From assembly GCA_963728945.1 (NCBI GenBank), contig CAVSMA010000002.1:738723-802722 (forward strand): DNA of 64,000 nt. Reading direction: 5' to 3'. Below the pieces are notes generated by a model. That model was not told where the DNA came from and did no database searches. It worked only from the letters and a program-made list of their open reading frames with translations. Every line of letters starts with the position of its first letter. The stretch's first letter is position 1. A program made the position numbers and the translations under genes. Shown in pieces: positions 14,810 through 32,607 of the stretch. This stretch comes from an uncultured Actinomycetota bacterium. Its GTDB lineage: Bacteria > Actinomycetota > Actinomycetes > Mycobacteriales > CADCTP01.

Positions 14810-14882
14810 GCGGACGTGGCTCAGTTGGTAGAGCATCACCTTGCCAAGGTGAGGGTCGCGGGTTCGAATCCCGTCGTCCGCT
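14810..14882 (+). tRNA. tRNA-Gly (GCC)
   Basis: The acceptor is gcggacg/cgtccgc. The anticodon arm is tcacc-ttGCCaa-ggtga. The T-loop is ggttcgaatcc. Confidence 0.93.
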
Positions 14883-14934
14883 CGGAGACGCCCTCGGGTG
14901 TCCTGTCGGTCTCCCGAGGTCACTCGGGCTTCCT

Positions 14935-15006
14935 GGCGGAGTGGCCGAGTGGCATAGGCAAGGGCCTGCAAAGCCCTGTACGCGGGTTCGATTCCCGCCT
15001 CCGCCT
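14935..15006 (+). tRNA. tRNA-Cys (GCA)
   Basis: The acceptor is ggcggag/ctccgcc. The anticodon arm is agggc-ctGCAaa-gccct. The T-loop is ggttcgattcc. Confidence 0.92.
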
Positions 15007-15007
15007 C

Positions 15008-15082
15008 GGGCGCTTAGCTCAGCGGGAGAGCGCTTCCCTGACACGGAAGAGGTCACTGGTTCAATCCCAGTAGCGCCCACCA
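15008..15082 (+). tRNA. tRNA-Val (GAC), CCA encoded
   Basis: The acceptor is gggcgct/agcgccc. The anticodon arm is cttcc-ctGACac-ggaag. The T-loop is ggttcaatcc. The 3' end is acca. Confidence 0.93.
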
Positions 15083-18975: not shown

Positions 18976-20499
18976 CTACCGGTAGCGGGACGCGGTGTCC
19001 CGGGCCGGGTGCGCCCGGCCGGCCGGGCCGGTCGCGAACGCCTCCAGCAGCCGCGTCGTCACCCCGGTCACCACCCGGCGTACGACCGGGGTCGGCGAGT
19101 CGAGCCCGGCGACCCAGTCGCTGGTGCCCGAGTCGAACACGGCCGCGCCGGACCGGGTGGTGTAGTACGCCGCCTCGGCCGCGTCCGCCCGCCCGTCGCA
19201 GACCAGCGGGGAGTGGGTGAGCACCTCGATCGGCCGCGGCGTGGGCGCACCAAGGTAGACCCGGTCATACTCGGAGCCGACCAGGCCGGGCAGCCGGCTG
19301 CCGGCGGACAGCCCGAGCCCGGCGAACAGCCAGCTGCCCGGGTCGACCACGACCATCGGCGCGCGGACCGGGCTGCAACCGTAGTCGGTGCCGGTCAGGC
19401 TGCTCTCGTTGTCGCTGGACGGCGGGTCCCGCCACTGGGTCGTCACCTGCGCCGGGTCGGTACGGCCGATCGGGTCGGTGTCGTCCTTGTAGTTGATCTC
19501 GAGCCGGTCCGGGCCGACCGCGGTGCCGCCGAACCGGATCTTCCGGTAGATCGCGTTCGCCCCGAGGAACGCGACGTTGGTGCCGGCGTCACGGGCGCGG
19601 GTGAGCGCCGCCCGCATGTCCGGCGACCAGTACTCGTCGTGTCCGAGCGAGATCACCGCACTCGCGCCGGCCAGCAGGCCGGGGTCACGCTGCAGGTCGA
19701 CGTCGGTGGCGTAGCCGAGCCGAAGCCCGAGCTTCTCGGCGAGCGCGACCGCCGGCAGCTCGGCGCCGAGGAAGTCGGCCGTCCCGGCGCCGTAGTCGTA
19801 CGGCCGGTCGAACGTGACCGCGCGGGCCCGGTCGGCGCGGGCGCCGTCCGGTCCGTGGTAGAGGCTGTAGCCGCCCCAGGCGTTGTACGCCTGCCAGGTC
19901 GTGTCGGCGTTGACCAGCACCACCGCGCCCCGGTTGGTCGCCGTCCGGACGGTGAGCGGGACGAACCGGCGCAGCGCTCCGCGGTCGGTGTCCAGCCGGA
20001 GCAGGTAGTCGCCGGCCGGCCAGCCGGTGGTCGGCACGGTCAGCGTCGGCCGCCACGGCGCGCTCGGCGTGTGCGTCGGGCCGGTGACCCGGGCCGCCGC
20101 CTGCAGCCGGGTCGGCACCGGCGCCGACTGCCAGACCAGCCGCGCCCTCCTCCCGCCGTACCAGCCCATCCGGTACGCGCGGACCCGGACGTGGTGGGCG
20201 GTCGTCGAGACGAACAGCCGCACCGGCTGGCCGGGCAGCACGCTGTCGTGATCGGCGTAGCCCTCGACGTCGTGCTGGCCGCCCACCTTGACCACCGACC
20301 AGTTCGGGTCGCCGGGCCTGGCCCGCTCCGTGGCGGCCGGGAACGCCGGTGCCGCGGTCGGTCGGGCCGCCGGGCGGGTGGTGGCGGATGCGGTCCGGGG
20401 CGGCGGAGTCGGGCGCCCGGACGTGCAGCCGGCCAGCGCCAGCGCGGCCAGCGCTCCGGCGAGCAGGGCGCCTCGTCCTGGACGGGACCGGACGGTCAT
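18976..20499 (-). CDS. lipoprotein of the N,N-dimethylformamidase beta-subunit-like (DUF6605) family
   Basis: The start is chosen at [25 protein letters not shown] (lipobox). [34 protein letters not shown] is typical of the family, from memory. Confidence 0.65.
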
Positions 20500-20578
20500 C
20501 GGCACAGTGTGGCGGACCACCGAACGGTCCGGCCCGGCGCGGGCCGCAGCGCCGGCCGGGAGGGATACGGTCGGGCTC

Positions 20579-22269
<1,691 letters not shown>

Positions 22270-22270
<1 letters not shown>

Positions 22271-23467
22271 TGCCGCCGGTCGGGGACCTGCTGGTCCGGC
22301 GGGCCGGCCGGATCGTCACCAACGACGGCCCGCCGGTGCCCGGGCCGGCCGCGGTGTCGGTCCGCAACGGGGTGGTCGCCTGGATCGGCCCGGACGAGCG
22401 GGTGCCGTGGACGATCACCGACGCGCCCGAGCTGGACGCGGACGGCGCCTGCGTGCTGCCCGGGTTCGTCGACCCGCACACGCACGCGTTGTGGGCCGGC
22501 TCGCGGCGGGAGGAGTACGCCGCCCGGCTGGCCGGCGAGTCGTACACCGGCGGCGGCATCGCGTCGACCGTCGCCGCCACCACCGCAGCGCCCGACGACG
22601 AGCTCCTCGACCTGGCCGCGCTCCGGCTCGGGCGGATGGCCGCGAACGGCACGACGACCGTCGAGGTGAAGACCGGCTACGGGCTCGACCCGGCGGCGGA
22701 GCTGCGGCTGGTCGGGCTGGTACGCCGGCTCGCCGAGCGGGTGCCGCTCCGGGTCGAGCCGACCCTGCTGGCGCACGTGGTCCCGGCCGGGGTCGACCGC
22801 GGCCGCGCACGTCGCGGCGCTGGCCGGGCTCATGCCGGTGGCCGGCGACGCCGGCGCCCGATGGCTGGACGTGTTCTGCGACCGGGGCGCGTTCACGGTC
22901 GACGAGGCGCGGACGCTGCTGCGGGCCGGCGCCGCGGCCGGGCTCGGCGGCCGGCTGCACGCCGAGCAGCTCAGCCACACCGGCGCCGCCGCGCTGGCCG
23001 CCGAGGCCGGCTGCGCCTCCGCAGACCACCTGGAGCACGTCGACGAGGCCGGGGCGAAGGCGATGGCGGCGACCGGCGTGGTCGGCGTGCTGCTGCCGAC
23101 CGCGACACTGAGCACGCACGGGGGCTGGGACAACGCGCGGGTGCTGCGCGAGGCCGGGGTGACGCTCGCCCTCGGCACCGACTGCAACCCGGGCACGTCC
23201 TGGTGCGAGTCCGTCCCGTACGCGCTGCAGCTGGCGGCGCCGCTGCTCGGGCTGACCGTGCCGGAGGCGATCCGCGCCGCGACGGCCGGCGGGGGAGCGG
23301 CGCTGCGCCGGCCCGAGCTCGGCGTGCTGCGGTTGACCCACCCGGGCGACCTGCTGGTGCTGGAGGCGGAGCACGAGGCGGACCTGCTCGCCCACCTCGG
23401 CGCGCCCGCCGTCCGCACCACGATCGTCGGCGGAGTGCCGGTCTCCGGCGCCCGCACCATCCACTGA
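22270..23467 (+). pseudogene. hutI: imidazolonepropionase interrupted by an apparent +1 frameshift near 22798
   Basis: The N-terminal half (LPGFVDPHTHALWAGSR...LLAHVVPAGVD) is in the frame of 22270. The C-terminal half (AAAHVAALAGLMPVAGDAGARWLDVFCDRGAF...LHAEQL...ADHLEH...LGTDCNPGTS) is in the next frame and ends at 23467. Removing c at 22798 joins them seamlessly. Confidence 0.85.
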
Positions 23468-23702
23468 CGCACCGCCCGCCGCCGGCCGCACCACTCGCCC
23501 GCCCGCGACGGCTCGACCGTCCTCTGGGCTGGTTGCGGGCGTCCGCCCCACCGTCTTGGTCGCCCAGTGCCGCCGGCGGCTCGACCCTCCTGCCGGACCG
23601 CGGCGCCGGCCGTTGCCCCGGGCGCCGGCTCCGGCGGGCGACTCGGGTGCCGGGCGCCGGCCGGGCGACGGGTCGGGAGCGGGCGCCTTAGGCTGGGTGC
23701 TC

Positions 23703-24806
23703 ATGCGGAGGCTGCCGGTGAGCGGAGTCGGCGACCGGGTGCGGCTGGCCGGGTTCTTCGCCCGGCTGGCGGTCAAGGAGCACCTGGCGCCACGGCTGCA
23801 CGTGCGACCCCTGGTGGCCGAGCTGTTCCTCACCGACAACTGCAACCTCAACTGCATCAGCTGCGCCTGCTGGCGCACCGTCACCCGGCGCGAGCTGGAC
23901 GGCGACGAGTGGCGCGGGGTGATCGACCAGATCGCGGAGCTCGGCATCCTGAAGGCCAACTTCACCGGCGGCGAGCCGTTGCTGCGCCGCGACGCCCCGG
24001 AGCTCATGGCGTACGCGCGGGACGCGGGAATTCGGTCGCTGCACGTGAACACCAACGCGATCCTGCTCGACGACCGCCGACTCGGCGCCGTGCTCGACGC
24101 CGGCGTGCGCTCGTTCAACGTGTCCGTCGACGGTCCGGACGCCGAGCAGCACGACCGGATCCGCGGTAAGTCCGGGGCATTCGACACGACCCTCGACGCC
24201 CTGCAGCGGCTGCTCGCCGGCCGCGACGAGCTCGACATGCGGGTACGGATGAACTACACGGTCATGCGCTCGACCGTGGCCGCGCTGCCGGAGATCATGC
24301 GGCTGGCGCAGCGACTGCGGGTGCAGCTCTACCTGAACCTGGCCACCGACCACACGTTCCTGTTCCGGGACGGTCAGGTCTCGATCGAGGCGCGGGTCGA
24401 CCAGGCGCAGGTCGACGCGGCGCTGACCGAGGTCGAACAGGTGCTGCGGGCCGACCGCCGGTTCCTGCCGCGCTACTCGGAGCTGGCGTATCTGCGCGGC
24501 CACTTCGCGGACCTGCTGCAGAAGCCGCTGCCGTGCGCCGAGTCGCAGCTGAAGCTGATGGTGCATTCGACCGGCGAGGTCGGCGGCTGCTGGGGACACG
24601 ACGCGACGGCGAACGTGCGCACCACGCCGCTGCGGGAGATCGTCGCCGGTGCCGCGTACCGGGACGAGCACGCGCGGCTCTTCCGGAAGGACTGCGTGGG
24701 CTGCGGCAGCAACTACGCGCTCAACCTGGCCTGGCGACCGCGGACGTACGCGGCCGACGTGCTGTGGCGGGCGGGCCGGCGATCGCTGGCTCCGGTCGCA
24801 GCGTGA
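23703..24806 (+). CDS. radical SAM enzyme with SPASM/twitch-like C-terminal cysteines
   Basis: The Cx3Cx2C motif is in LTDNCNLNCISCAC. FTGGEPLL is present. The C-terminal cysteines are PLPCAESQ...GEVGGCWGH and KDCVGCGSNY. Confidence 0.85.
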   Translation: MRRLPVSGVGDRVRLAGFFARLAVKEHLAPRLHVRPLVAELFLTDNCNLNCISCACWRTVTRRELDGDEWRGVIDQIAELGILKANFTGGEPLLRRDAPELMAYARDAGIRSLHVNTNAILLDDRRLGAVLDAGVRSFNVSVDGPDAEQHDRIRGKSGAFDTTLDALQRLLAGRDELDMRVRMNYTVMRSTVAALPEIMRLAQRLRVQLYLNLATDHTFLFRDGQVSIEARVDQAQVDAALTEVEQVLRADRRFLPRYSELAYLRGHFADLLQKPLPCAESQLKLMVHSTGEVGGCWGHDATANVRTTPLREIVAGAAYRDEHARLFRKDCVGCGSNYALNLAWRPRTYAADVLWRAGRRSLAPVAA

Positions 24807-25576
24807 GACCGAGCGCGCCCCTGTACGACGCGCTGGCCGCGGACTACGACGCCCACTTCGCCGCCCCGCACCGGCGCGCGTACGACGAGCTGGCCTGGGA
24901 GGTCTGCGCGGAGGTGATCGGGGCGGCTCCAGCGCACGTCGTGGACGTCGGGTGCGGGGTCGGACGGTGGGCGGCGCGACTGGTCTCGGCCGGGCACCGG
25001 GTGACCGGGATCGAGCCGGCTCCGGCGATGGCGGCCGCGGCCCGGCGCCGGCTCGCCGGCAGCGACGTCACGCTGGTCGAGTGCCGCCTGGAGGACGCCG
25101 CGCTGCGGTCCGGGTCGGCCGACGTGGTGCTCGCGATGGGGTCGCTGCAGTACACGCTCGACCCGGCCGCGGCGCTCGCCCGGTGCGCGGCCTGGCTGCG
25201 GCCCGGGGGCGCGATGTGCGTTCTGGTCGACTCGCGCCAGGCCCTGGTGCTGGAACTGCTCGCCGCCGGCCGGACCGATGAGGCACTGGAGTGCCTGGCG
25301 ACCCGGCGCGGGGTGTGGCAGGTCGGACCGCACGCCGCCGACCTGCACCTGCTCGACGCGGCCGAGCTGGCCGCGGCGGTGCGTGCCGCCGGCCTGGCGG
25401 TGGAGCGGCTGGCCGGCCTGCTCGTCGGCGCCTCGGCGCACGGCCGGGCCGGCCTGCTCACCCGCCTCGAGCGCGACTACCCGGCCCAGCTCGCCGCCGA
25501 ACGCCGCCTCGCCGCCGAACCCGCGCTGGCCGACCTCGGCAAGCAACTCCTCATCACCGCCCGCAAGCCCGCCTGA
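24803..25576 (+). CDS. class I SAM-dependent methyltransferase
   Basis: The GTG start overlaps the radical SAM stop (GTGA at 24803-24806). VVDVGCGVGRWAARL and LRPGGAMCVLV are present. Confidence 0.8.
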   Translation: MRPSAPLYDALAADYDAHFAAPHRRAYDELAWEVCAEVIGAAPAHVVDVGCGVGRWAARLVSAGHRVTGIEPAPAMAAAARRRLAGSDVTLVECRLEDAALRSGSADVVLAMGSLQYTLDPAAALARCAAWLRPGGAMCVLVDSRQALVLELLAAGRTDEALECLATRRGVWQVGPHAADLHLLDAAELAAAVRAAGLAVERLAGLLVGASAHGRAGLLTRLERDYPAQLAAERRLAAEPALADLGKQLLITARKPA

Positions 25577-25677
25577 GCACCGCCCGCAAGCCAACCGAGC
25601 CGGGCCGGCCGCCCGACGCAGCAGTCAGCGCCGCGCGCCCAGCTGGGCCGGGATGGCCGCCCGGCGCTGCGCAGCGG

Positions 25678-27744
25678 TCAGCGCCGGGCGGCGGTCAGCG
25701 CCGCGAGGACTGCCATCGTGACGCGTTCGGCCTGGAGAGGTGACAGTTCCGAGGACATCGGCAGCGCGAGCGCCTCCCGGCCGAGCGCGTCGGAGACCGG
25801 CAGCGGCCCGGCCCGCTCCGCGTAGGGACCCCAGTCGTGCCAGTGCAGCGGGGGCGCGTAGTAGGGCTTGGTGCGGACGCCGAGCCGGTCGAGCTCGGCC
25901 GCCAGCCGATGCCGGTCGACCCCGCCGAATCGCGCCACCCAGTGGACGAACGCGTGCGCGTCGCCGTCGGCCACCTGCTGCGGCCGCACCCCCTCCACGG
26001 TCGCGAGCTCGGCGTAACGGGCGGCGACCGCCCGCCGCCGGTCGAGCAGCAGGTCGAGGTCCGCGAGCAGATCGAGCGCGGCCACCGCCGCGGTCTCGAC
26101 CATCGGCACCGACCGCAGCCAGTCGACCGGTGCCCGCAGCCGCTCGACCGCGTCGGCCGGCAGTGCCAGCGCGCCGCCGCTCCCGCCGGCGGAGACCACC
26201 TTCGCGAAGCTCAGCGAGTAGGCATGGGCGGCCGCCTGGGTGGCGACCGGGCGGCCCTGGTGCCGCGCCCCGACCGCGGCGGCGGAGTCGGCGACCAGCG
26301 GCACCCCGGCGTCCGCGCAGACCTTCGTCAGCGCCGTGTAGTCCGCCGGCGCGCCGAGTGCGTCGACCGCGACGACGACCGCCGCGTGGCCGCCGGCGAG
26401 CGCGGCCGCGAGCGAGTCGGGGTCCATCGTCCAGGTGTCCGGGCGCACGTCGCAGAACCGCAGCGTGTAGCCGAGCTGGGCCAGGATCTCGCCGGTGGCC
26501 GCGAAGGTGAACGAGGGCAGCACGCCGACGTCGCCCGGGCGGACCGGCCCCGCGACAGCCTGCACGGCCAGCCGCACCGCGGCCGAGCCGGACGCGGTCA
26601 GCAGCAGCGCCGAGTCTTCCGGCAGCGTCAGCTCGTCCCGCAGCCGGGTGGCCAGCTCGGTCGCCCAGCGCCCGCCCTTGACCCTGCCGGTGTCCAGGCA
26701 GGCCTGCATCCTGACGGCCACCAGGTCGGGCCGGCGCGGCCGCGGCGGCAGCACCACCGGCAGCGGCGGCGAGAACGCGGGCAACCGGTCGGCGGCGAGC
26801 CCGGTCACGAACGACCGCAGCGTCCGGTCGAGCCGAGCCGGCCCGTCAGCGGCACCGAGCCGCCGCCGGAACTCCTCCGTGTCGACCCGGCCGGACACGT
26901 CCAGCCGTGGCGGCGGGTCGACCGTCACCGGCACGTCGACGCCGAGCGTGTCCAGCACCAGCGCGGCGAGACAGGTCAGCGGCAGCGCGGCCAGCCCGGC
27001 GTCGAGCGTGCCCGGTTCGGCGTCGAGCACGACGGCGGCGAGGTCGTCGACCGGCAGGAAAGTCCGCACGGTGTCGGTGACGGCCAGCGGCAGCCCGGCC
27101 AGCGCCCGCCGGCTCAGCTGGGCGACCACGCGGTCCTGACCCGGACCGAACACGTTGGCCGCGCGCAGCACGGTCAGCCGGTCGGGCTCGACCACCGAGC
27201 GGACCAGCAGCTCCTGCGCCCGTTTGGACAGCGCGTAGGCCCAGCGGCCGCCCGGGTCGGCGGCTACCAGCTCCCGGCACAGCGCGGCCACCTGCCACGG
27301 CGGAGAGGGCCGGCGGGCGACCTCGAGCAGCGCCGCGCACCAGTCGGCGACGGTGGCGTCGTCGACCGGCAGCTCGCCGCCGGCCGGGCCGTGCACCTCG
27401 GCCGAGGAGACCAGCACAACCTGCCGGTCCGCCAGCGCTGGCAGCAGTCGTGCGGTCGTGACCGCGTTGTCGAGCACCAGCCGCCACGGATCGCCGGCGT
27501 GCCGGTCGCTGGCGCCGGCCGCGAGCACGACCGGCCCGGGTGGCATCTCGATCGGGTCGACCAGCAGGTCGACCACCCGCTGTTCGACCGACGCCGGCAG
27601 CCGCGACGGCGGCTGACGGATGCGGTCGAGACTGACCACCGGCCGTCCCGACCCGGTCACCCGCCGAGCGATCCCGGAGCCCACGAATCCGGCGCCGCCC
27701 ACGACAGTCACAGCCCCACGCTGCACCCGGCACCTCCCCGTCAT
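25678..27744 (-). CDS. fusion protein: N-terminal NAD-dependent epimerase/dehydratase (extended SDR) + C-terminal DegT/DnrJ/EryC1/StrS-type PLP aminotransferase
   Basis: SDR part: VTVVGGAGFVGSGIA, VSSAEVHG, and the YxxxK motif in YALSKRAQE. Aminotransferase part: LLTASGSAAVRLAV, VPLVADSAAAVGA, and the lysine motif SLSFAKVVSAGGSGGA. An alternative GTG start at 27726 is preceded by ggggagg. Confidence 0.8.
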   Translation of the reverse strand: MTGRCRVQRGAVTVVGGAGFVGSGIARRVTGSGRPVVSLDRIRQPPSRLPASVEQRVVDLLVDPIEMPPGPVVLAAGASDRHAGDPWRLVLDNAVTTARLLPALADRQVVLVSSAEVHGPAGGELPVDDATVADWCAALLEVARRPSPPWQVAALCRELVAADPGGRWAYALSKRAQELLVRSVVEPDRLTVLRAANVFGPGQDRVVAQLSRRALAGLPLAVTDTVRTFLPVDDLAAVVLDAEPGTLDAGLAALPLTCLAALVLDTLGVDVPVTVDPPPRLDVSGRVDTEEFRRRLGAADGPARLDRTLRSFVTGLAADRLPAFSPPLPVVLPPRPRRPDLVAVRMQACLDTGRVKGGRWATELATRLRDELTLPEDSALLLTASGSAAVRLAVQAVAGPVRPGDVGVLPSFTFAATGEILAQLGYTLRFCDVRPDTWTMDPDSLAAALAGGHAAVVVAVDALGAPADYTALTKVCADAGVPLVADSAAAVGARHQGRPVATQAAAHAYSLSFAKVVSAGGSGGALALPADAVERLRAPVDWLRSVPMVETAAVAALDLLADLDLLLDRRRAVAARYAELATVEGVRPQQVADGDAHAFVHWVARFGGVDRHRLAAELDRLGVRTKPYYAPPLHWHDWGPYAERAGPLPVSDALGREALALPMSSELSPLQAERVTMAVLAALTAARR

Positions 27745-27855
27745 CCCGGACCAACCGTCCCGAACCCGGGGGACAACCTATCCCCTTCCGGACCTGACGG
27801 GACATCCTTGCTACGTTCCTGCACGTCATGTCTGTGATCGACCTAGGGTGTCGGA

Positions 27856-28308
27856 GTGCCGCGCGTGCTGCTCGTCTCGTCCAGCGGCGGCGTACTACCC
27901 GACCTGCTTGCACTCCGACCGTGGTGGGGCCGGTACGACGTCAGCTGGGTCGCGGTGAACGCTCCGGACACACGCGAACTGCTGGCGGGCGAGCGGGTTC
28001 GCTGGACACCGGAGCTGAGCCCCGGCCGGCCGGACCGGCTGCTGGCCGCGGTCCCGGCCGCGCGGGCGGCCCTGCGCGCCTCCCGGGTCGATCTCGTTGT
28101 CTCCGCGGGCAGCGGCGTCGCCGTGCCCTGGTTCCTCGCGGCGCGTACCACGGGCGCGCGGGCGGTGTGGGTGGAGACGTTCAACATCGTCGACCGTGCG
28201 GGGCTGGCCGCCCGGCTGTGCGCCCGACTGGCCAGCCACGTCGTCGTGCAGCGGCCGCACCTGCTCGGCCGGCACCGGCGGGCGGTTGCCGTCGGGGAGC
28301 TGTGGTGA
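27856..28308 (+). CDS. Alg14-like glycosyltransferase accessory/membrane-association subunit (PssD/Cps14F-like)
   Basis: VLLVSSSGGVL, DLVVSAGSGVAVPWFLAAR and VWVETFNIVDRAGLAARL...VVVQRPHL match the Alg14 layout, from memory. Confidence 0.7.
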   Translation: MPRVLLVSSSGGVLPDLLALRPWWGRYDVSWVAVNAPDTRELLAGERVRWTPELSPGRPDRLLAAVPAARAALRASRVDLVVSAGSGVAVPWFLAARTTGARAVWVETFNIVDRAGLAARLCARLASHVVVQRPHLLGRHRRAVAVGELW

Positions 28309-29540
28309 GTTCGGTCTTCGTCACGGTCGGGATGGGGCCCTGGCCGTTCGACCGGCTGGTCCGGGCGGTCTCGCCGCTCTGTTCCGAGCACGACGTATTC
28401 GTCCAGACCGGCACGTCGTCGGTGGTGCCGCCGTGCCCGTACGAGCGATTCCTGGGGCCGGCCGAGACACTGCGCCGGATCACGGACGCCGACGTCGTCG
28501 TCACCCACGGCGGCAACACCGTGCGGCTCGCGCAGCGCGCCGGGAAGGTGCCGATCGCGGTCGCTCGGGAGGCGGCGCGCGGGGAGATGCGCAACGACCA
28601 CCAGGTCGCTTACCTGGCGACGGAGCTGGCCGGCGGCCGGATCCGCGTGCTCACCGGGGACCGGCCGGCGCTGGCCACCGCGGTCGGGGACCATCCGGCC
28701 GTACAGTCCCGGATGCTCGCCGCCGCCCCGCCGCTGCCGCCGCCGGCGGACCCGGTCCGGGTGGTCGAAGCGCTGGACGCCGCGCTGTCGCCGGCCGGTG
28801 GACCGTTCGATCGGCACCCGCTGGCCCGCTACCGGTGGGCCTGGGGCCAGCTCGCCGCCCGCACCGGCCGGCACCTCGACCTGGGCGTCGGTGACGGGAC
28901 GTTCACGGCCGCGCTGCACCGGGAGACCAAGCTGGACGTGGTGGCCGTCGATGCCCACCCGAGCTATCTCAACGAGCTGCGCGCAGCCGAACCTCACCTC
29001 CCGCTGGGCCGGGTCGGGGCCGCGCTGCCGTTCGCGAGCGGCGCCTTCGACTCGGTCAGCGCGCTGGACGTGCTCGAACACGTCGCCGACGAGGCCGGGA
29101 CGCTGGCCGAGTTGCACCGCGTGCTGCGCCCGGGCGGCCTGCTGGTGCTCACCGTCCCCGCGCGGCATGCGTTCTCGGTGCTCGATCCCGACAACGCCAA
29201 ACTCACGCTGCCGCGCCTGCACCGGGCGGTCTACCAGCGCCGGTTCGGCCGGGCCGAGTACGAGCGGCGGTTCGTCGACGCGGCGAACGGGCTGCGCGGC
29301 GACATGGCCTGGGATCGGGCGGAGCACACGAACTACCGGGCGACCGAGCTGCTCGCCGCGCTGTCCGCGGTCGGGTTCGAGCCGACCGTGCGGGACGGCG
29401 CCGGGCTCTACTGGCGGCTCCTGCAGGTGCCGGCGCTGCTGCTGCCCCGCCGCCTCGCCCGGCTGCTGGACGCCCCGCAGCGGCTGGACGCCCGGCTGTT
29501 CCACCGGGCCAACCTCTTCCTCACCGCGACCCGCCGCTGA
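28305..29540 (+). CDS. fusion: Alg13-like glycosyltransferase catalytic half (Glyco_tran_28_C; PssE/Cps14G-like) + class I SAM methyltransferase
   Basis: There is a GTGA overlap with the Alg14-like gene. GT half: VFVTVGMGPWPFDRLV, VVVTHGGNTV, GKVPIAVARE...NDHQ. MT half: HLDLGVGDGTF, FDSVSALDVLEHV, LRPGGLLVLTVP. Confidence 0.7.
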   Translation: MSSVFVTVGMGPWPFDRLVRAVSPLCSEHDVFVQTGTSSVVPPCPYERFLGPAETLRRITDADVVVTHGGNTVRLAQRAGKVPIAVAREAARGEMRNDHQVAYLATELAGGRIRVLTGDRPALATAVGDHPAVQSRMLAAAPPLPPPADPVRVVEALDAALSPAGGPFDRHPLARYRWAWGQLAARTGRHLDLGVGDGTFTAALHRETKLDVVAVDAHPSYLNELRAAEPHLPLGRVGAALPFASGAFDSVSALDVLEHVADEAGTLAELHRVLRPGGLLVLTVPARHAFSVLDPDNAKLTLPRLHRAVYQRRFGRAEYERRFVDAANGLRGDMAWDRAEHTNYRATELLAALSAVGFEPTVRDGAGLYWRLLQVPALLLPRRLARLLDAPQRLDARLFHRANLFLTATRR

Positions 29541-29591: not shown

Positions 29592-30020
29592 TCAGCTGAA
29601 GTCGCCGTGCAGGAGCAGGTCGAGCTCGGCGTCGAGGTCGACGTACCGCGCCTCGTCCCCGGGTGGCACGACCTCGTGGCACCGGTCGACGAACCCCGCG
29701 AGCACCGCCCGCGGCACGGCGAGCAGCGCGCGGCCGGACGGCGACCGCAGCTCGATATACACCGGTCCGGTCAGGTCGTCCAGCGCCGGCCAGATCCGCA
29801 CGTCGCCGTCGCCCGCCGGCTCGGTCAGGCCGTCGGCGGCGAGCGAGCGGGCGAAGATCCACTCGATCGGATCGCGACCGGACGGAGTCAGGAAGGACAG
29901 ATGGATCGCGTACGGGTCATCGCGGTCGTAGCGGAGCGATGCCTCGACGAAGACCTCAGCACGCGGCATCACGAGCCATAAGGTGACAGCCGTACGGACT
30001 TCGGATACTCGACCGTTCAT
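29592..30020 (-). CDS. ssgB: SsgA/SsgB-family sporulation/cell-division protein
   Basis: LRYDRDDPYAIHLSF, IEWIFARSLAADGL, GDGDVRIWP and PPGDEARYVDLDAELDLLL closely follow the SsgB pattern. The start is ATG 30020, preceded by ggggggaa. Confidence 0.85.
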   Translation of the reverse strand: MNGRVSEVRTAVTLWLVMPRAEVFVEASLRYDRDDPYAIHLSFLTPSGRDPIEWIFARSLAADGLTEPAGDGDVRIWPALDDLTGPVYIELRSPSGRALLAVPRAVLAGFVDRCHEVVPPGDEARYVDLDAELDLLLHGDFS

Positions 30021-30168
30021 TCGTTCCCCCCGTGCATGACTTCTTACCACGCGTGACTGCGTCCGCAACGCCAGTCAACCCGGATCGGTAAGGTGTCGCC
30101 CGTCGAAGACAGCGATTCGCGAACCGGTGTGCCCCGTGTCGCGAAGACTTGTCGTGGAGAGCGCCGTC

Positions 30169-30789
30169 ATGGAGAGGCCCCCTGCGCTGCCGCCCGAGAC
30201 CGATGTCTCGGACGGCATGCTGGTGCGCCGCCTCACCGACGGTGACAACGGGGCGCTCGAAGCGCTCTACGACCGGTACGTCCGGCCGGCGTTCGCGCTG
30301 GCCAGGCGGATCACCGGGGACGCCGCGTTCGCCGAGGAGGTGGTCCAAGAGGTCTTCCTGGCCCTCTGGCGGGACCCGGCCAAGTACGACCCGCAGCGCG
30401 GCGGGTTCCCGAGCTGGTTGCTCGCGGCGACCCACCACAAGGCTGTGGATGCGGTGCGCCGGGAGCAGTCGGTGCGCTCGCGGCGGGCAAGCCTGGCCGA
30501 GGAGGCGCACTACTACACCGCGGCCGGCGCGAGCGACCTGCCGCCGGTCGAGGACGCGGCCTGGGCCGGGCTGCGCGGCGAACGGGTACGCGCGGCGTTG
30601 TCTGCGCTGCCGCCATCGCAGCGGGAAGCGATCGTGCTGGCCTACTACGCCGGCTATACCCAGTCGGAGATCGCGGAGCGCACGGGGGCGCCGCTCGGCA
30701 CAGTAAAGACGCGCATGCTGGCGGCCATGCGTCGGCTTCGTCTGCTCCTCGACGAGGTCGCCGACCCCACGGAAGGGGGTCGGCCGTGA
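30169..30789 (+). CDS. ECF (group IV) sigma-70 factor, SigK-like
   Basis: Region 2 is AEEVVQEVFLALWR...WLLAATHHKAVDAVR. Region 4 is REAIVLAYYAGYTQSEIAERTGAPLGTVKTRM. ATG 30169 follows ggagag. Confidence 0.85.
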   Translation: MERPPALPPETDVSDGMLVRRLTDGDNGALEALYDRYVRPAFALARRITGDAAFAEEVVQEVFLALWRDPAKYDPQRGGFPSWLLAATHHKAVDAVRREQSVRSRRASLAEEAHYYTAAGASDLPPVEDAAWAGLRGERVRAALSALPPSQREAIVLAYYAGYTQSEIAERTGAPLGTVKTRMLAAMRRLRLLLDEVADPTEGGRP

Positions 30790-32063
30790 GCGAGCCCATC
30801 GACCCCCGCGAGCAGCTCGGCGAGCACGCCGAGTGGGATGCGCTCGCCGTCGCCTGGGCGCTGTCGGCGCTCGACCCCGAGGACGAGGAGCGCTTCGCCG
30901 AGCACCTGCCGGGGTGCACACGCTGCACGGCAACCGTGCGGGAGTCGCTCTACACGGTCGCGGATCTCGCGTACGCGCTGCCCGACGAGGCACCGCCTCC
31001 CTCGCTGAAGGCGAGGCTGATGGCGGCGGTCGCGGCCGAGCCGCGGACACCCGGCGCGCCGCCGGAGCCCGAGGCGCCGGTGGAGCCGGAACCCGAACAG
31101 GAGTGGCCGCTCGGCGAGCCGCATCCTGGCAGCCCGGGGTACGGCATCGACTGGTTCGCCAGGCCCGCGCGCCCAGAACCCGGGCCTGACCAGGGGGACC
31201 TGGGAATCCACCAGCCGCCGGTCGGGGAGCGCCGGACCGGTCCGCAGCCGGCGCCGGCCGTCGACGCGCCCGCGACCGAGACGCGCCGCCCCGACCTGCC
31301 CCTCGCCCGCCCGCCGCAGCCCACCGCCGACCGCCCGCCGCAGCCCACCGCTGACCGCGCGCCGCAGCCCAGCGCCGACCGCGCGCCGCAGCCCGGCGCC
31401 GACCGCCCGCTGCAGCCCGGCGCCGACCGCCCGCCGCAGCCCAGCGCCGACCGCCCGCCGCAGCCTCCGGCCGCCGGTCCGACCCAGCCGCGGTCCACCG
31501 GAGAGCCCCCCGCCGACGAGGAGGCGACCGAGGTCGTCTCGCTGGGTGGACGTCGTCGCGGCGTGGTGCGGTGGGTCGCGATCGGGGTCGCCGCGGCCGC
31601 GGTGGTGGCGCTCATCGCGGGGCTGCTGGTTTCGAACGTCCACCTGCGCGACCAGAAGGACGACCTCCGCCGGGTCGTGGCCCAGCGAGACGCCGCGATC
31701 GCGCAGCTGACGGCCAACGGTCCGGCCAAGGTCGCCGCGCTGACCGCGGATGGCCAGCCGTCGCCCGACCGCCGCGCCACGCTCGTCGTCCGCGGCGACC
31801 ACATCGAGATCATCGTCGAGTCGCTGGGTCCGACGACCGGCAACGAGACGTACTGGCTGTGGACGCTGCGTTGTGACACACCGAAGCCCACCGACCTCAA
31901 GCCGATCCGCGGGTTCACCGTTACTCAGTCCGACTTCAGCGTGCGCGACATAGGATCGGACCCTGGAGTGGCCAGCGCGCCCTGCTTCGCGATCAGCTCG
32001 GAGGAGGGCACGGCGACTCCGAAGGCCCCACGGCAGGTCGTGGCGGTGGGGCGGCCCAGATAG
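30786..32063 (+). CDS. anti-sigma factor (zf-HC2 N-terminus, single TM, RskA-like extracytoplasmic domain) with Pro-rich repeat linker
   Basis: There is a GTGA overlap with the sigma gene. The Hx3Cx2C motif is in EHLPGCTRC. The TM helix is WVAIGVAAAAVVALIAGLLV. The C-terminal part contains ETYWLWTL. Confidence 0.75.
   Translation: MSEPIDPREQLGEHAEWDALAVAWALSALDPEDEERFAEHLPGCTRCTATVRESLYTVADLAYALPDEAPPPSLKARLMAAVAAEPRTPGAPPEPEAPVEPEPEQEWPLGEPHPGSPGYGIDWFARPARPEPGPDQGDLGIHQPPVGERRTGPQPAPAVDAPATETRRPDLPLARPPQPTADRPPQPTADRAPQPSADRAPQPGADRPLQPGADRPPQPSADRPPQPPAAGPTQPRSTGEPPADEEATEVVSLGGRRRGVVRWVAIGVAAAAVVALIAGLLVSNVHLRDQKDDLRRVVAQRDAAIAQLTANGPAKVAALTADGQPSPDRRATLVVRGDHIEIIVESLGPTTGNETYWLWTLRCDTPKPTDLKPIRGFTVTQSDFSVRDIGSDPGVASAPCFAISSEEGTATPKAPRQVVAVGRPR
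31308..31475 (+). repeat. 24-bp in-frame tandem repeat x7 encoding (D)RPPQPxA octapeptides
   Basis: The units are RPPQPTAD, RPPQPTAD, RAPQPSAD, RAPQPGAD, RPLQPGAD, RPPQPSAD and RPPQPPAA. Confidence 0.85.
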
Positions 32064-32535: not shown

Positions 32536-32607
32536 GGGCGATTGGCTCAGCGGGAGAGCGCCTCGTTCACACCGAGGAGGTCACTGGTTCGATCCCAGTA
32601 TCGCCCA
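32536..32607 (+). tRNA. tRNA-Val (CAC)
   Basis: The acceptor is gggcgat/atcgccc. The anticodon arm is cctcg-ttCACac-cgagg. The T-loop is ggttcgatcc. No CCA is encoded. Confidence 0.92.

Follow-up and report, generated by a model that had tools for sequence, protein, structure and literature searches.

Do a few sugar-related genes that lie side by side in a bacterial genome make up one pathway, and if so, what would that pathway build? The question is raised by a locus in a stretch of 64,000 nucleotides (the window; positions 738,723 to 802,722 of the forward strand of contig CAVSMA010000002.1, assembly GCA_963728945.1) from an uncultured bacterium of the Mycobacteriales (Actinomycetota). Five tightly packed genes of this window encode a radical S-adenosylmethionine (SAM) enzyme (rSAM), a class I SAM-dependent methyltransferase (MT1), a fusion of a short-chain dehydrogenase/reductase with a DegT/DnrJ/EryC1-type aminotransferase (SDR-AT), an Alg14-like subunit and, as gene 5, an Alg13-like catalytic half fused to a second methyltransferase (MT2). 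Comparison with about 100 related loci indicates that the five genes are one functional unit, and we propose, with moderate confidence, that this cassette assembles and tailors a short glycan with a methylated amino sugar on a polyprenyl-phosphate carrier, destined for a glycoconjugate of the cell envelope.

A first-pass annotation, made from the letters alone, had described the five genes, two four-base overlaps and a divergent spacer of 111 bp poorer in GC, and all of these were recovered in our analysis. The rSAM stop codon overlaps the MT1 start in the GTGA at 24803-24806, the Alg14-like stop codon overlaps the start of gene 5 in the GTGA at 28305-28308, and the spacer has a GC content of 0.622 vs 0.745 for the window. 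All five open reading frames (ORFs) display a coding-type codon bias (GC3 0.89-0.94, GC2 0.47-0.58), and each of the seven catalytic domains which they encode was recovered, its catalytic motifs intact.

Relatives of the locus were gathered by genome scan, protein searches, contig look-ups and a scan of metagenomes that started from an alignment of rSAM sequences. The genome scan returned identical synteny in four closely related metagenome-assembled genomes (MAGs) labelled Mycobacteriales or Actinomycetota, and the metagenome scan added 80 further loci; many of the loci are on soil contigs. The protein searches and look-ups recovered the gene set, about 50-70% identical, in the hosts named below and in further NCBI and ENA assemblies. 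In all, about 100 loci have the seven domains together; besides the one Chloroflexota MAG, they represent at least four orders of actinomycetes. Named hosts are Kribbella qitaiheensis (CP043661, about 820-842 kb), Micromonospora sp. (CP120740, about 368-391 kb), Actinoplanes sp. (in which the cassette is divided into two parts), Actinoallomurus soli and MAGs of Streptosporangiaceae and Nocardioidaceae, and the distribution within genera is patchy. When the seven domains were mapped on all loci, the set was almost always complete wherever the contig was long enough. The most frequent order is colinear, (SDR) Alg14 Alg13 MT2 rSAM MT1 SDR-AT, but gene order is shuffled and the flanking genes are unrelated between lineages. 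Recurrence in so many loci, despite shuffled order and unrelated neighbours, argues that the five genes form one functional unit; on this comparative sequence evidence the window carries the minimal form of a widespread cassette, and the co-conservation expected of a real gene set was thus borne out.

The fusions point the same way, to a different extent for each pair. SDR and aminotransferase are fused in 46 of 47 loci and the Alg13-like half and MT2 in 27 of 55, MT2 being a separate gene elsewhere (for example in the Micromonospora locus L019), and a fusion of the Alg14-like and Alg13-like halves was seen in none of 61 loci. The fusions of the window are therefore kept elsewhere in the case of SDR-AT, and are optional in the case of Alg13-MT2. 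That five sugar-related genes have come to lie together by chance, with no shared pathway, is refuted by the recurrence of seven domains together despite rearrangement, by fusions and fissions which connect three pairs of components, and by the conserved translational coupling; we attach practically no probability to it. Coordinates are collected in Table 1.

Table 1. Genes, domains and neighbouring features of the locus; positions are counted from the first letter of the window
Feature	Positions	Strand	Length	Remark
rSAM gene	23703-24806	+	367 aa
MT1, class I SAM methyltransferase	24803-25576	+	257 aa
SDR-AT fusion	25678-27744	-	688 aa
SDR domain	26785-27744	-		N-terminal, residues 1-~320 of SDR-AT
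DegT/DnrJ/EryC1-type pyridoxal phosphate (PLP) aminotransferase domain	25678-26784	-		C-terminal part of SDR-AT
Divergent intergenic spacer	27745-27855	none	111 bp
Alg14/EpsE/PssD-like subunit	27856-28308	+	150 aa
Alg13-like-MT2 fusion (gene 5)	28305-29540	+	411 aa
Alg13/EpsF/PssE-like domain	28305-28784	+		residues 1-160 of gene 5
MT2 methyltransferase domain	28800-29540	+		part of gene 5
SsgA/SsgB-family gene	29592-30068	-		context only, outside the conserved cassette
ECF-type sigma factor	30154-30789	+		context only; Sigma70_r2, Sigma70_r4_2 and Sigma70_ECF matches
Putative anti-sigma factor	30786-32063	+	425 aa	context only; no Pfam match

What each protein may do was read from domain, motif and fold comparisons. 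The description of SDR-AT as an extended SDR joined to a DegT-type aminotransferase held good, with 64.6 bits for Pfam Epimerase (PF01370) and 152.9 bits vs 19.8 for DegT_DnrJ_EryC1 (PF01041). Across 25 sequences the SDR domain keeps GGxGFxG (GGAGFVG), D39, S112-S/T-x-E115-V-Y-G118 and Y169-xxx-K173 (YALSK). Between the SSxEVYG and YxxxK motifs lies a family-specific insertion of about 45 aa (window 27235-27405, minus strand, residues ~114-170) with conserved W134, C146-P-P-W149 and C155, which might bind a metal, take part in redox chemistry or bring the two domains into contact. In a profile search of the PDB the SDR domain matched the human UDP-glucuronate decarboxylase, or UDP-xylose synthase (UXS; UDP, uridine diphosphate), best (UXS1, 4gll/2b69), ahead of 4-epimerases, and it keeps the S-T/S-x-E catalytic motif of UXS/ArnA-type decarboxylases. 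The Schiff-base lysine of the aminotransferase domain, K514 (SFAK), is invariant; its best PDB sequence match is DesI (2po3, 3.7e-23), and TlmJ, WbpE, perosamine synthase, DesI and ArnB match its fold with TM-scores of about 0.85. The whole fusion models as one body (pLDDT 90, pTM 0.89).

This arrangement is reminiscent of ArnA/ArnB and of CalS8/S9/S13/S10 in the calicheamicin/AT2433 aminopentose route, where a UXS-family SDR and a DegT aminotransferase make a UDP-4-amino sugar from the UDP-glucuronate pool. The likeness extends to relatives of the cassette which carry UDP-glucose dehydrogenase and UXS genes, and to MT1, which weakly resembles the N-methyltransferase CalS10. In contrast to those systems, the cassette has SDR and aminotransferase in one polypeptide, its SDR is very divergent and bears the ~45-aa insertion, and it is without formyltransferase, ArnC, ArnT, enediyne or indolocarbazole scaffold genes.

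The Alg14-like protein and the N-terminal part of gene 5 are related to the acceptor-side and the nucleotide-sugar-binding half, respectively, of a split glycosyltransferase (GT), a homology established through NCBIfam and through tblastn to annotated epsE/pssD genes. PssD and PssE are the best matches of the Alg14-like and Alg13-like halves, respectively, followed by WelK, a fused glucuronosyltransferase which matches both (N-half 48 bits, C-half 32 bits). Over 99% of its length the Alg14-like protein is 27-35% identical to annotated pssD/epsE products of eps plasmids from lactic acid bacteria, and those lactococcal eps operons run phosphoglycosyl transferase (PGT), EpsE, EpsF. The Alg13-like motifs THxGNTV (THGGNTV) and E-x2-N-D-H-Q (EMRNDHQ) align with EpsF proteins. 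The earlier naming of the two subunits after Alg14 and Alg13 hence stands on PssD/PssE homology, whereas Pfam Alg14 stays below its gathering score (23.3 vs 27 bits) and the essential histidine of that family is absent; likewise, Glyco_tran_28_C is faint in the window protein (E 0.11) but gives a match in 14 of the 18 family members, with E 5.4e-6 at best. A PDB profile search with the two halves gave a faint MurG match for the Alg14-like protein (E 0.018) and none for the Alg13-like one, and a hydrophobic segment was not found in the Alg14-like protein.

In the Alg14-like family the loop in question reads SSSGGV, its valine being invariant in 18 of 18 members, vs SSGGH in three aligned EpsE/PssD proteins. 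The corresponding loop reads GSGGH in Alg14 and GGxGGH in MurG. Neither Agl24 nor MurG can do without its histidine, a residue presumed to touch the lipid diphosphate, and in transferases of the Alg13/Alg14 type the acceptor-side half recruits a catalytic half that is itself soluble (PMC8993221). The cassette pair shares fold family and two-subunit logic with Alg13/Alg14 and archaeal Agl24, from which it differs in the low Alg14 score and the missing histidine. Both Alg13/Alg14 and Agl24 are UDP-N-acetylglucosamine (GlcNAc): dolichyl-diphosphate-GlcNAc transferases. With EpsD/E/F of Lactococcus, Cps14E/F/G of Streptococcus pneumoniae and PssA/D/E of Rhizobium it shares a split GT-B transferase encoded by two adjacent genes of ~150-170 aa, the HxG and E..N(D/N)HQ motifs of the Alg13-like half and, in extended relatives, a Bac_transf PGT in the same operon. 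Unlike these systems, the cassette has neither the GGH histidine nor an N-terminal membrane anchor in its Alg14-like protein, often has its Alg13-like half fused to a methyltransferase, adds rSAM and SDR-AT, and has no Wzx, Wzy or chain-length genes nearby.

The two methyltransferases were recovered as first described, by Methyltransf_11/25 matches in genes 2 and 5 (Methyltransf_11 71.7 bits for MT1 and 62.9 bits for residues 191-282 of gene 5, threshold 21.2). A proline-rich linker joins MT2 to the Alg13-like half. Both are generic class I enzymes. The MT1 gene, translationally coupled to the rSAM gene by the overlap, always follows it in related loci, and its PDB matches are generic, the sugar N-methyltransferases CalS10 (3.7e-7) and DesVI (8e-6) being among them.

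The rSAM enzyme is the most conserved component, every homologue recovered being at least 58% identical to the window protein; a comparison of homologues gave a range of 60-98%. Its assignment was upheld by 82.3 bits for Radical_SAM (PF04055; threshold 29.5) and by all the motifs read from it earlier: the CX3CX2C cluster of C47, C51 and C54 (CNLNCISC, with an extra C56), GGEPLL, C278-x17-C296 and C331-VG-C334 (CVGC). It has exactly eight cysteines, all invariant in 22 homologues. The SPASM model (PF13186) reached 16.7 bits and fell below its gathering score of 21.5, but the four auxiliary cysteines are invariant; taking 7-8 cysteines as the mark of SPASM and a single cluster as that of a twitch domain, they are consistent with one putative auxiliary cluster, twitch-like rather than a full SPASM domain. 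The AlphaFold2 model (pLDDT 84) finds BlsE as its best fold match in the PDB (7vob, E 1e-16, TM-score 0.65/0.72, 24% identity), with SkfB, PqqE, SuiB, DesII and MoaA next, and BlsE is also the best PDB sequence match.

DesII, which together with DesI had been offered as a precedent for an aminotransferase/radical SAM pair, is reached by PDB sequence with E 3e-5 (26 bits) and ranks sixth by fold. That pairing proved weak: the nearest rSAM fold is BlsE, and the aminotransferase scores far below the DesI model. In blasticidin S biosynthesis BlsE is a cytosylglucuronate decarboxylase, which converts cytosine glucuronide to a pentopyranoside (PMC3715490). BlsE by sequence and fold, and DesII as next among the sugar-acting folds, are the nearest solved relatives of the enzyme; both act on sugar carbons and have a DegT-family enzyme alongside in their pathways. 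They differ in that the cassette family has the conserved four-cysteine auxiliary site and C56, and that the cassette is without blasticidin or desosamine genes. A role as maturase of a ribosomally synthesised and post-translationally modified peptide was considered and rejected, as no precursor-peptide, protease or transporter family occurs among the recurrent flanking genes.

Two side observations concern this gene. Its G+C content (window 23750-24650) dips to 0.71 vs 0.75-0.78 in the neighbours; GC3 is still 0.94, and the dip thus reflects the amino-acid composition of a highly constrained protein and not foreign DNA. One rSAM homologue (P0172), 70% identical to the window protein, comes from an NCBI MAG labelled 'Sphingobium sp.'; because all other named sources but one, the Chloroflexota MAG, are actinomycetes, faulty binning or a recent transfer is the probable explanation.

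What the cassette builds is best approached through the genes which join it in other lineages, found by clustering the ORFs that flank the related loci. Of the fetched related loci, 28 have a Bac_transf PGT within the operon. Metagenomic loci account for 26 of these; there the enzyme is small (PF02397, 209 bits) and its gene usually overlaps the SDR-AT stop codon. The two others are the cultured A. soli and the Chloroflexota MAG, the latter with a different arrangement in which the PGT stands ahead of SDR-AT. Many of the 28 loci have, in addition, UDP-glucose dehydrogenase, UXS or an epimerase, and a sulfotransferase. Against the catalytic domain of WbaP/EPS sugar transferases the PGTs reach 265-276 bits, and WbaP/WcaJ-type hexose-1-phosphate transferases are their best models. 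UDP-glucose dehydrogenase genes occur in 11 loci, stand-alone extended SDRs in about 22, a sulfotransferase in 13 and second rSAM genes in 15 and 7. The stand-alone SDR of Kribbella is a true UXS (E 2e-103 vs human UXS1), and that of other loci is 4-epimerase-like. On one JGI contig (L108) a single ten-gene operon comprises epimerase, Alg14, Alg13, MT2, rSAM, MT1, SDR-AT, PGT, sulfotransferase and rSAM; the A. soli operon runs from epimerase through PGT and adds a HAD phosphatase, and one locus (L075) additionally holds WecG/TagA and GT2 transferases.

The window itself had been said to hold no priming phosphotransferase, and in its 64 kb we found no PGT, and no UDP-glucose dehydrogenase, UXS or sulfotransferase either. 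From this the first-pass annotation had concluded that the cassette decorates an existing acceptor. The in-operon PGT of 28 related loci speaks against that conclusion and makes a lipid-linked glycan built de novo more likely; the gene of the priming enzyme would then lie at another site of this genome. An EpsE/F-type transferase together with an in-operon PGT (and with WecG/TagA and GT2 in one locus) suggests a short glycan on polyprenyl phosphate for the envelope. Its sugars would come from the UDP-glucuronate/pentose pool, as four independent hints suggest: the accessory UDP-glucose dehydrogenase and UXS/epimerase genes, the UXS-like SDR, PssD/PssE and then WelK (whose named activity is glucuronosyl transfer) as best matches of the GT halves, and the BlsE-like rSAM. 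Pgl-type modules, in which a 4-amino sugar is made and then loaded on undecaprenyl phosphate, offer a parallel: like PglF/PglE/PglD/PglC, the extended relatives encode an SDR, a DegT enzyme and a small Bac_transf PGT together. However, the cassette SDR falls outside the PglF (Polysacc_synt_2) type, an acetyltransferase is lacking, and the PGTs score best on WbaP/WcaJ-type models.

The operons with additional genes gave a few further observations. Upstream of the extended cassette of A. soli (L109, 1-4117) lie, directly adjoining it, genes for a penicillin-binding protein (PBP) transpeptidase, an FtsW/RodA/SpoVE-family protein and a 457-aa GT2, a possible hint, from one genome only, at a link to wall synthesis. 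Additional, unrelated rSAM genes stand at 9813-10802 of L108, 16864-17853 of L083 and 6031-7167 of L095, one such enzyme having a clear SPASM domain (50 bits); with the sulfotransferase genes, they suggest further radical and sulfation tailoring in those lineages. Three unannotated proteins of L083 (458, 587 and 268 aa) were rejected as flippase or polymerase candidates, as they are not polytopic membrane proteins, and ABC exporters near L020-L022 and L100 look coincidental, the Actinoplanes one belonging to a cydABDC-type operon.

We infer the substrates, the order of the steps and the place of the product from the domain identities, co-occurrence and fusions observed. The SDR domain would oxidise C4 of a UDP-sugar from the UDP-glucuronate/UDP-xylose pool to a 4-keto sugar, possibly coupled to decarboxylation as in ArnA, and the fused DegT domain would at once transaminate this product to a UDP-4-amino sugar, following the logic of ArnA/ArnB and CalS9/CalS13. 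MT1 would then methylate the amino sugar, and our best guess for the site is the nitrogen. At the cytoplasmic face of the membrane, where the glycan would be assembled, a PGT encoded elsewhere in this genome would make the lipid-linked primer, and the soluble Alg14-like/Alg13-like heterodimer would add the next sugar in the manner of EpsE/F, Cps14F/G, PssD/E and Alg13/14. MT2, tethered to the catalytic half, may methylate the newly added residue. The twitch-type rSAM would abstract hydrogen from a sugar carbon through the 5'-deoxyadenosyl radical, for which glucuronide decarboxylation (as in BlsE), oxidation, epimerisation and deoxygenation are the candidate outcomes.

Several observations weigh against this proposal. 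A convincing transmembrane segment is present in none of the five proteins; a PGT stands beside the cassette neither in the window nor in the cultured Kribbella or Micromonospora genomes, and no flippase, polymerase or ligase was found within 10 kb in the loci examined. The named models which suggest the individual roles all stay far below their cut-offs: PssD scores 54.3 bits (E 1.8e-14) on the Alg14-like protein vs a cut-off of 110, PssE 42.6 bits (E 5.5e-11, N-terminal 100 residues of gene 5) vs 120, the BlsE equivalog TIGR04466 56.9 bits vs 400 and the DesI equivalog TIGR04427 109 bits vs 650. The similarity of the SDR to UXS is remote (E 3e-15, in two stretches), the invariant valine in place of the GGH histidine may mean that acceptor recognition differs from the family norm, and every substrate assignment is an inferred one.

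Some of the same facts invite a different reading, in which the product is a soluble amino-sugar or hexopyranosyl-nucleoside metabolite made by the logic of blasticidin or gougerotin. The split transferase would couple a UDP-uronic acid to a small acceptor, the rSAM would decarboxylate it, SDR-AT would aminate it and the methyltransferases would finish the molecule. All five proteins being predicted soluble, BlsE being the best sequence and fold match of the rSAM, the loss of the GGH histidine, which fits a non-lipid acceptor, the patchy occurrence within genera, the missing flippase and polymerase in every locus examined, and the weak likeness of MT1 to CalS10 and DesVI all agree with it. Yet a polyprenyl-phosphate PGT sits in the operon of 28 loci, in two arrangements and in several lineages; the GT halves are homologous to EpsE/F and PssD/E, which use lipid-linked acceptors; the identity to BlsE is only 24%, with the low TIGR04466 score (57 vs 400); and no exporter, resistance, regulator or scaffold gene (polyketide synthase, non-ribosomal peptide synthetase, cyclitol or nucleoside) is conserved with the cassette. 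We consider a soluble product unlikely.

A glycan short enough to need no polymerase, in accordance with the lack of one in any locus examined, might also end up on a protein (one of the cell surface or of cell division, for instance) or on some other macromolecule, directly or via a lipid-linked intermediate. PGT-primed short glycans are indeed the usual donors in bacterial protein glycosylation. However, the recurrent flanking families include neither an oligosaccharyltransferase (PglB, PglL or PMT-like) nor a recurrent target, and the cassette itself holds no pointer to a protein substrate, so that protein glycosylation appears improbable. 

The lipid-linked envelope glycan can be taken one step further: rSAM may edit a sugar by a new radical reaction after glycosyl transfer, for example by decarboxylating a lipid-linked glucuronide or remodelling it in another way. 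This belongs to a fuller reading which joins an undescribed envelope glycolipid or wall-linkage glycan, widespread among soil actinomycetes, the new rSAM editing reaction and a GT which, without the canonical GGH histidine, would use a non-canonical acceptor or catalytic base, and which, taken jointly, we put forward only tentatively.

The neighbourhood raised the further possibility of a developmental role. A Pfam search of the neighbours recovered, as annotated before, hutU, a hutI-like amidohydrolase, an SsgA-family gene (Pfam SsgA 105.7 bits) and an ECF (extracytoplasmic function) sigma gene; of the supposed sigma/anti-sigma pair, the ECF sigma factor is supported by Pfam and the second, 425-aa gene is without a Pfam match. 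A glycan specific to sporulation or septation could thus be imagined, under control of the adjacent ECF sigma/anti-sigma pair and ssgB, and SsgA-family and ECF sigma genes do adjoin the cassette in the window and in L001-L004, L024 and L025. The spacer, which presumably holds the promoters of both operon arms, also contains the blocks GACAACCTATC and TTGCTACGTTC, conserved in L001, L002, L024 and L025 and partly in L004, and these may be operator or promoter elements. But the ssgB/sigma/hutI adjacency is confined to the window's own shallow clade (rSAM at least 86% identical). Of the complete loci, 22 have 2.5 kb or more of flanking sequence, and ssgB is nearby in five of these, all of this clade, and in none of the other 17; the fetched Kribbella, Micromonospora, Actinoplanes, Actinoallomurus and Streptosporangiaceae loci have no ssgB near the cassette. 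A tentative ECF-type -35/-10 promoter in the spacer (a GGAAC-N15-CGTC-like string on the minus strand) was rejected, as it is not conserved in L024 or L001, and sigma-70 and terminator scans of the spacer gave no match. As the adjacency is confined to a shallow clade, conservation does not support the developmental link that had been suggested, and we regard it as very improbable.

Other features of the window concern the surroundings of the cassette. The imidazolonepropionase gene hutI (22267-23470, plus strand) carries a one-nucleotide frameshift, an indel near 22800 visible as a switch of coding frame on the GC3 plot; the extra base reads GACCGCGGCC vs GACCG-G.CC in both L001 and L024, which have an intact 399-aa protein. 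Either the sequencing or assembly is in error here, or hutI has recently become a pseudogene. Divergent from hutU, and kept in close relatives, is the gene of a 565-aa protein (18976-20673, minus strand) with a C-terminal domain like that of the N,N-dimethylformamidase beta subunit (DMFA2_C, 346 bits). Of four tRNA genes found, three form a tandem array at 14810-15079; the fourth (32536-32607) comes just after a PGPGW membrane-protein gene that lies downstream of the sigma/anti-sigma pair. An Rfam scan around the cassette (gathering threshold or E<=1) returned no riboswitch or small RNA and one match at chance level only.

The statement that this combination is not a described pathway stood up to the comparison with characterised systems: for none of the NCBIfam equivalogs BlsE, DesI, PssD/E, WelK, AhbD and PqqE does the score come near the cut-off, and full-text literature searches turned up no published description of the cassette. 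Its parts are of known kinds, namely PGT/EpsEF-type priming modules, ArnA/ArnB-like amino-sugar synthesis and sugar-acting rSAM enzymes. New are the way in which they are combined, the SDR-AT fusion kept in nearly all loci, the tethering of a methyltransferase to a GT, the His-to-Val change in the GT and a very conserved rSAM within a glycan operon.

To our knowledge, antibiotic pathways, such as those of DesII, BtrN, BlsE and AprD4, account for nearly all known radical SAM chemistry on sugars. An rSAM in a PGT/EpsEF-type glycan operon could bring to light a new way of editing carbohydrates during primary envelope biogenesis, and abundant soil actinomycetes would have, as its product, a surface or membrane glycoconjugate that has so far escaped characterisation. 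In SDR-AT a single protein already offers the route to a nucleotide amino sugar, and the His-to-Val change is a natural test of acceptor recognition in Alg14/MurG-type enzymes. With cultured hosts at hand in Kribbella qitaiheensis, Micromonospora spp. and Actinoallomurus soli, the question is directly testable.

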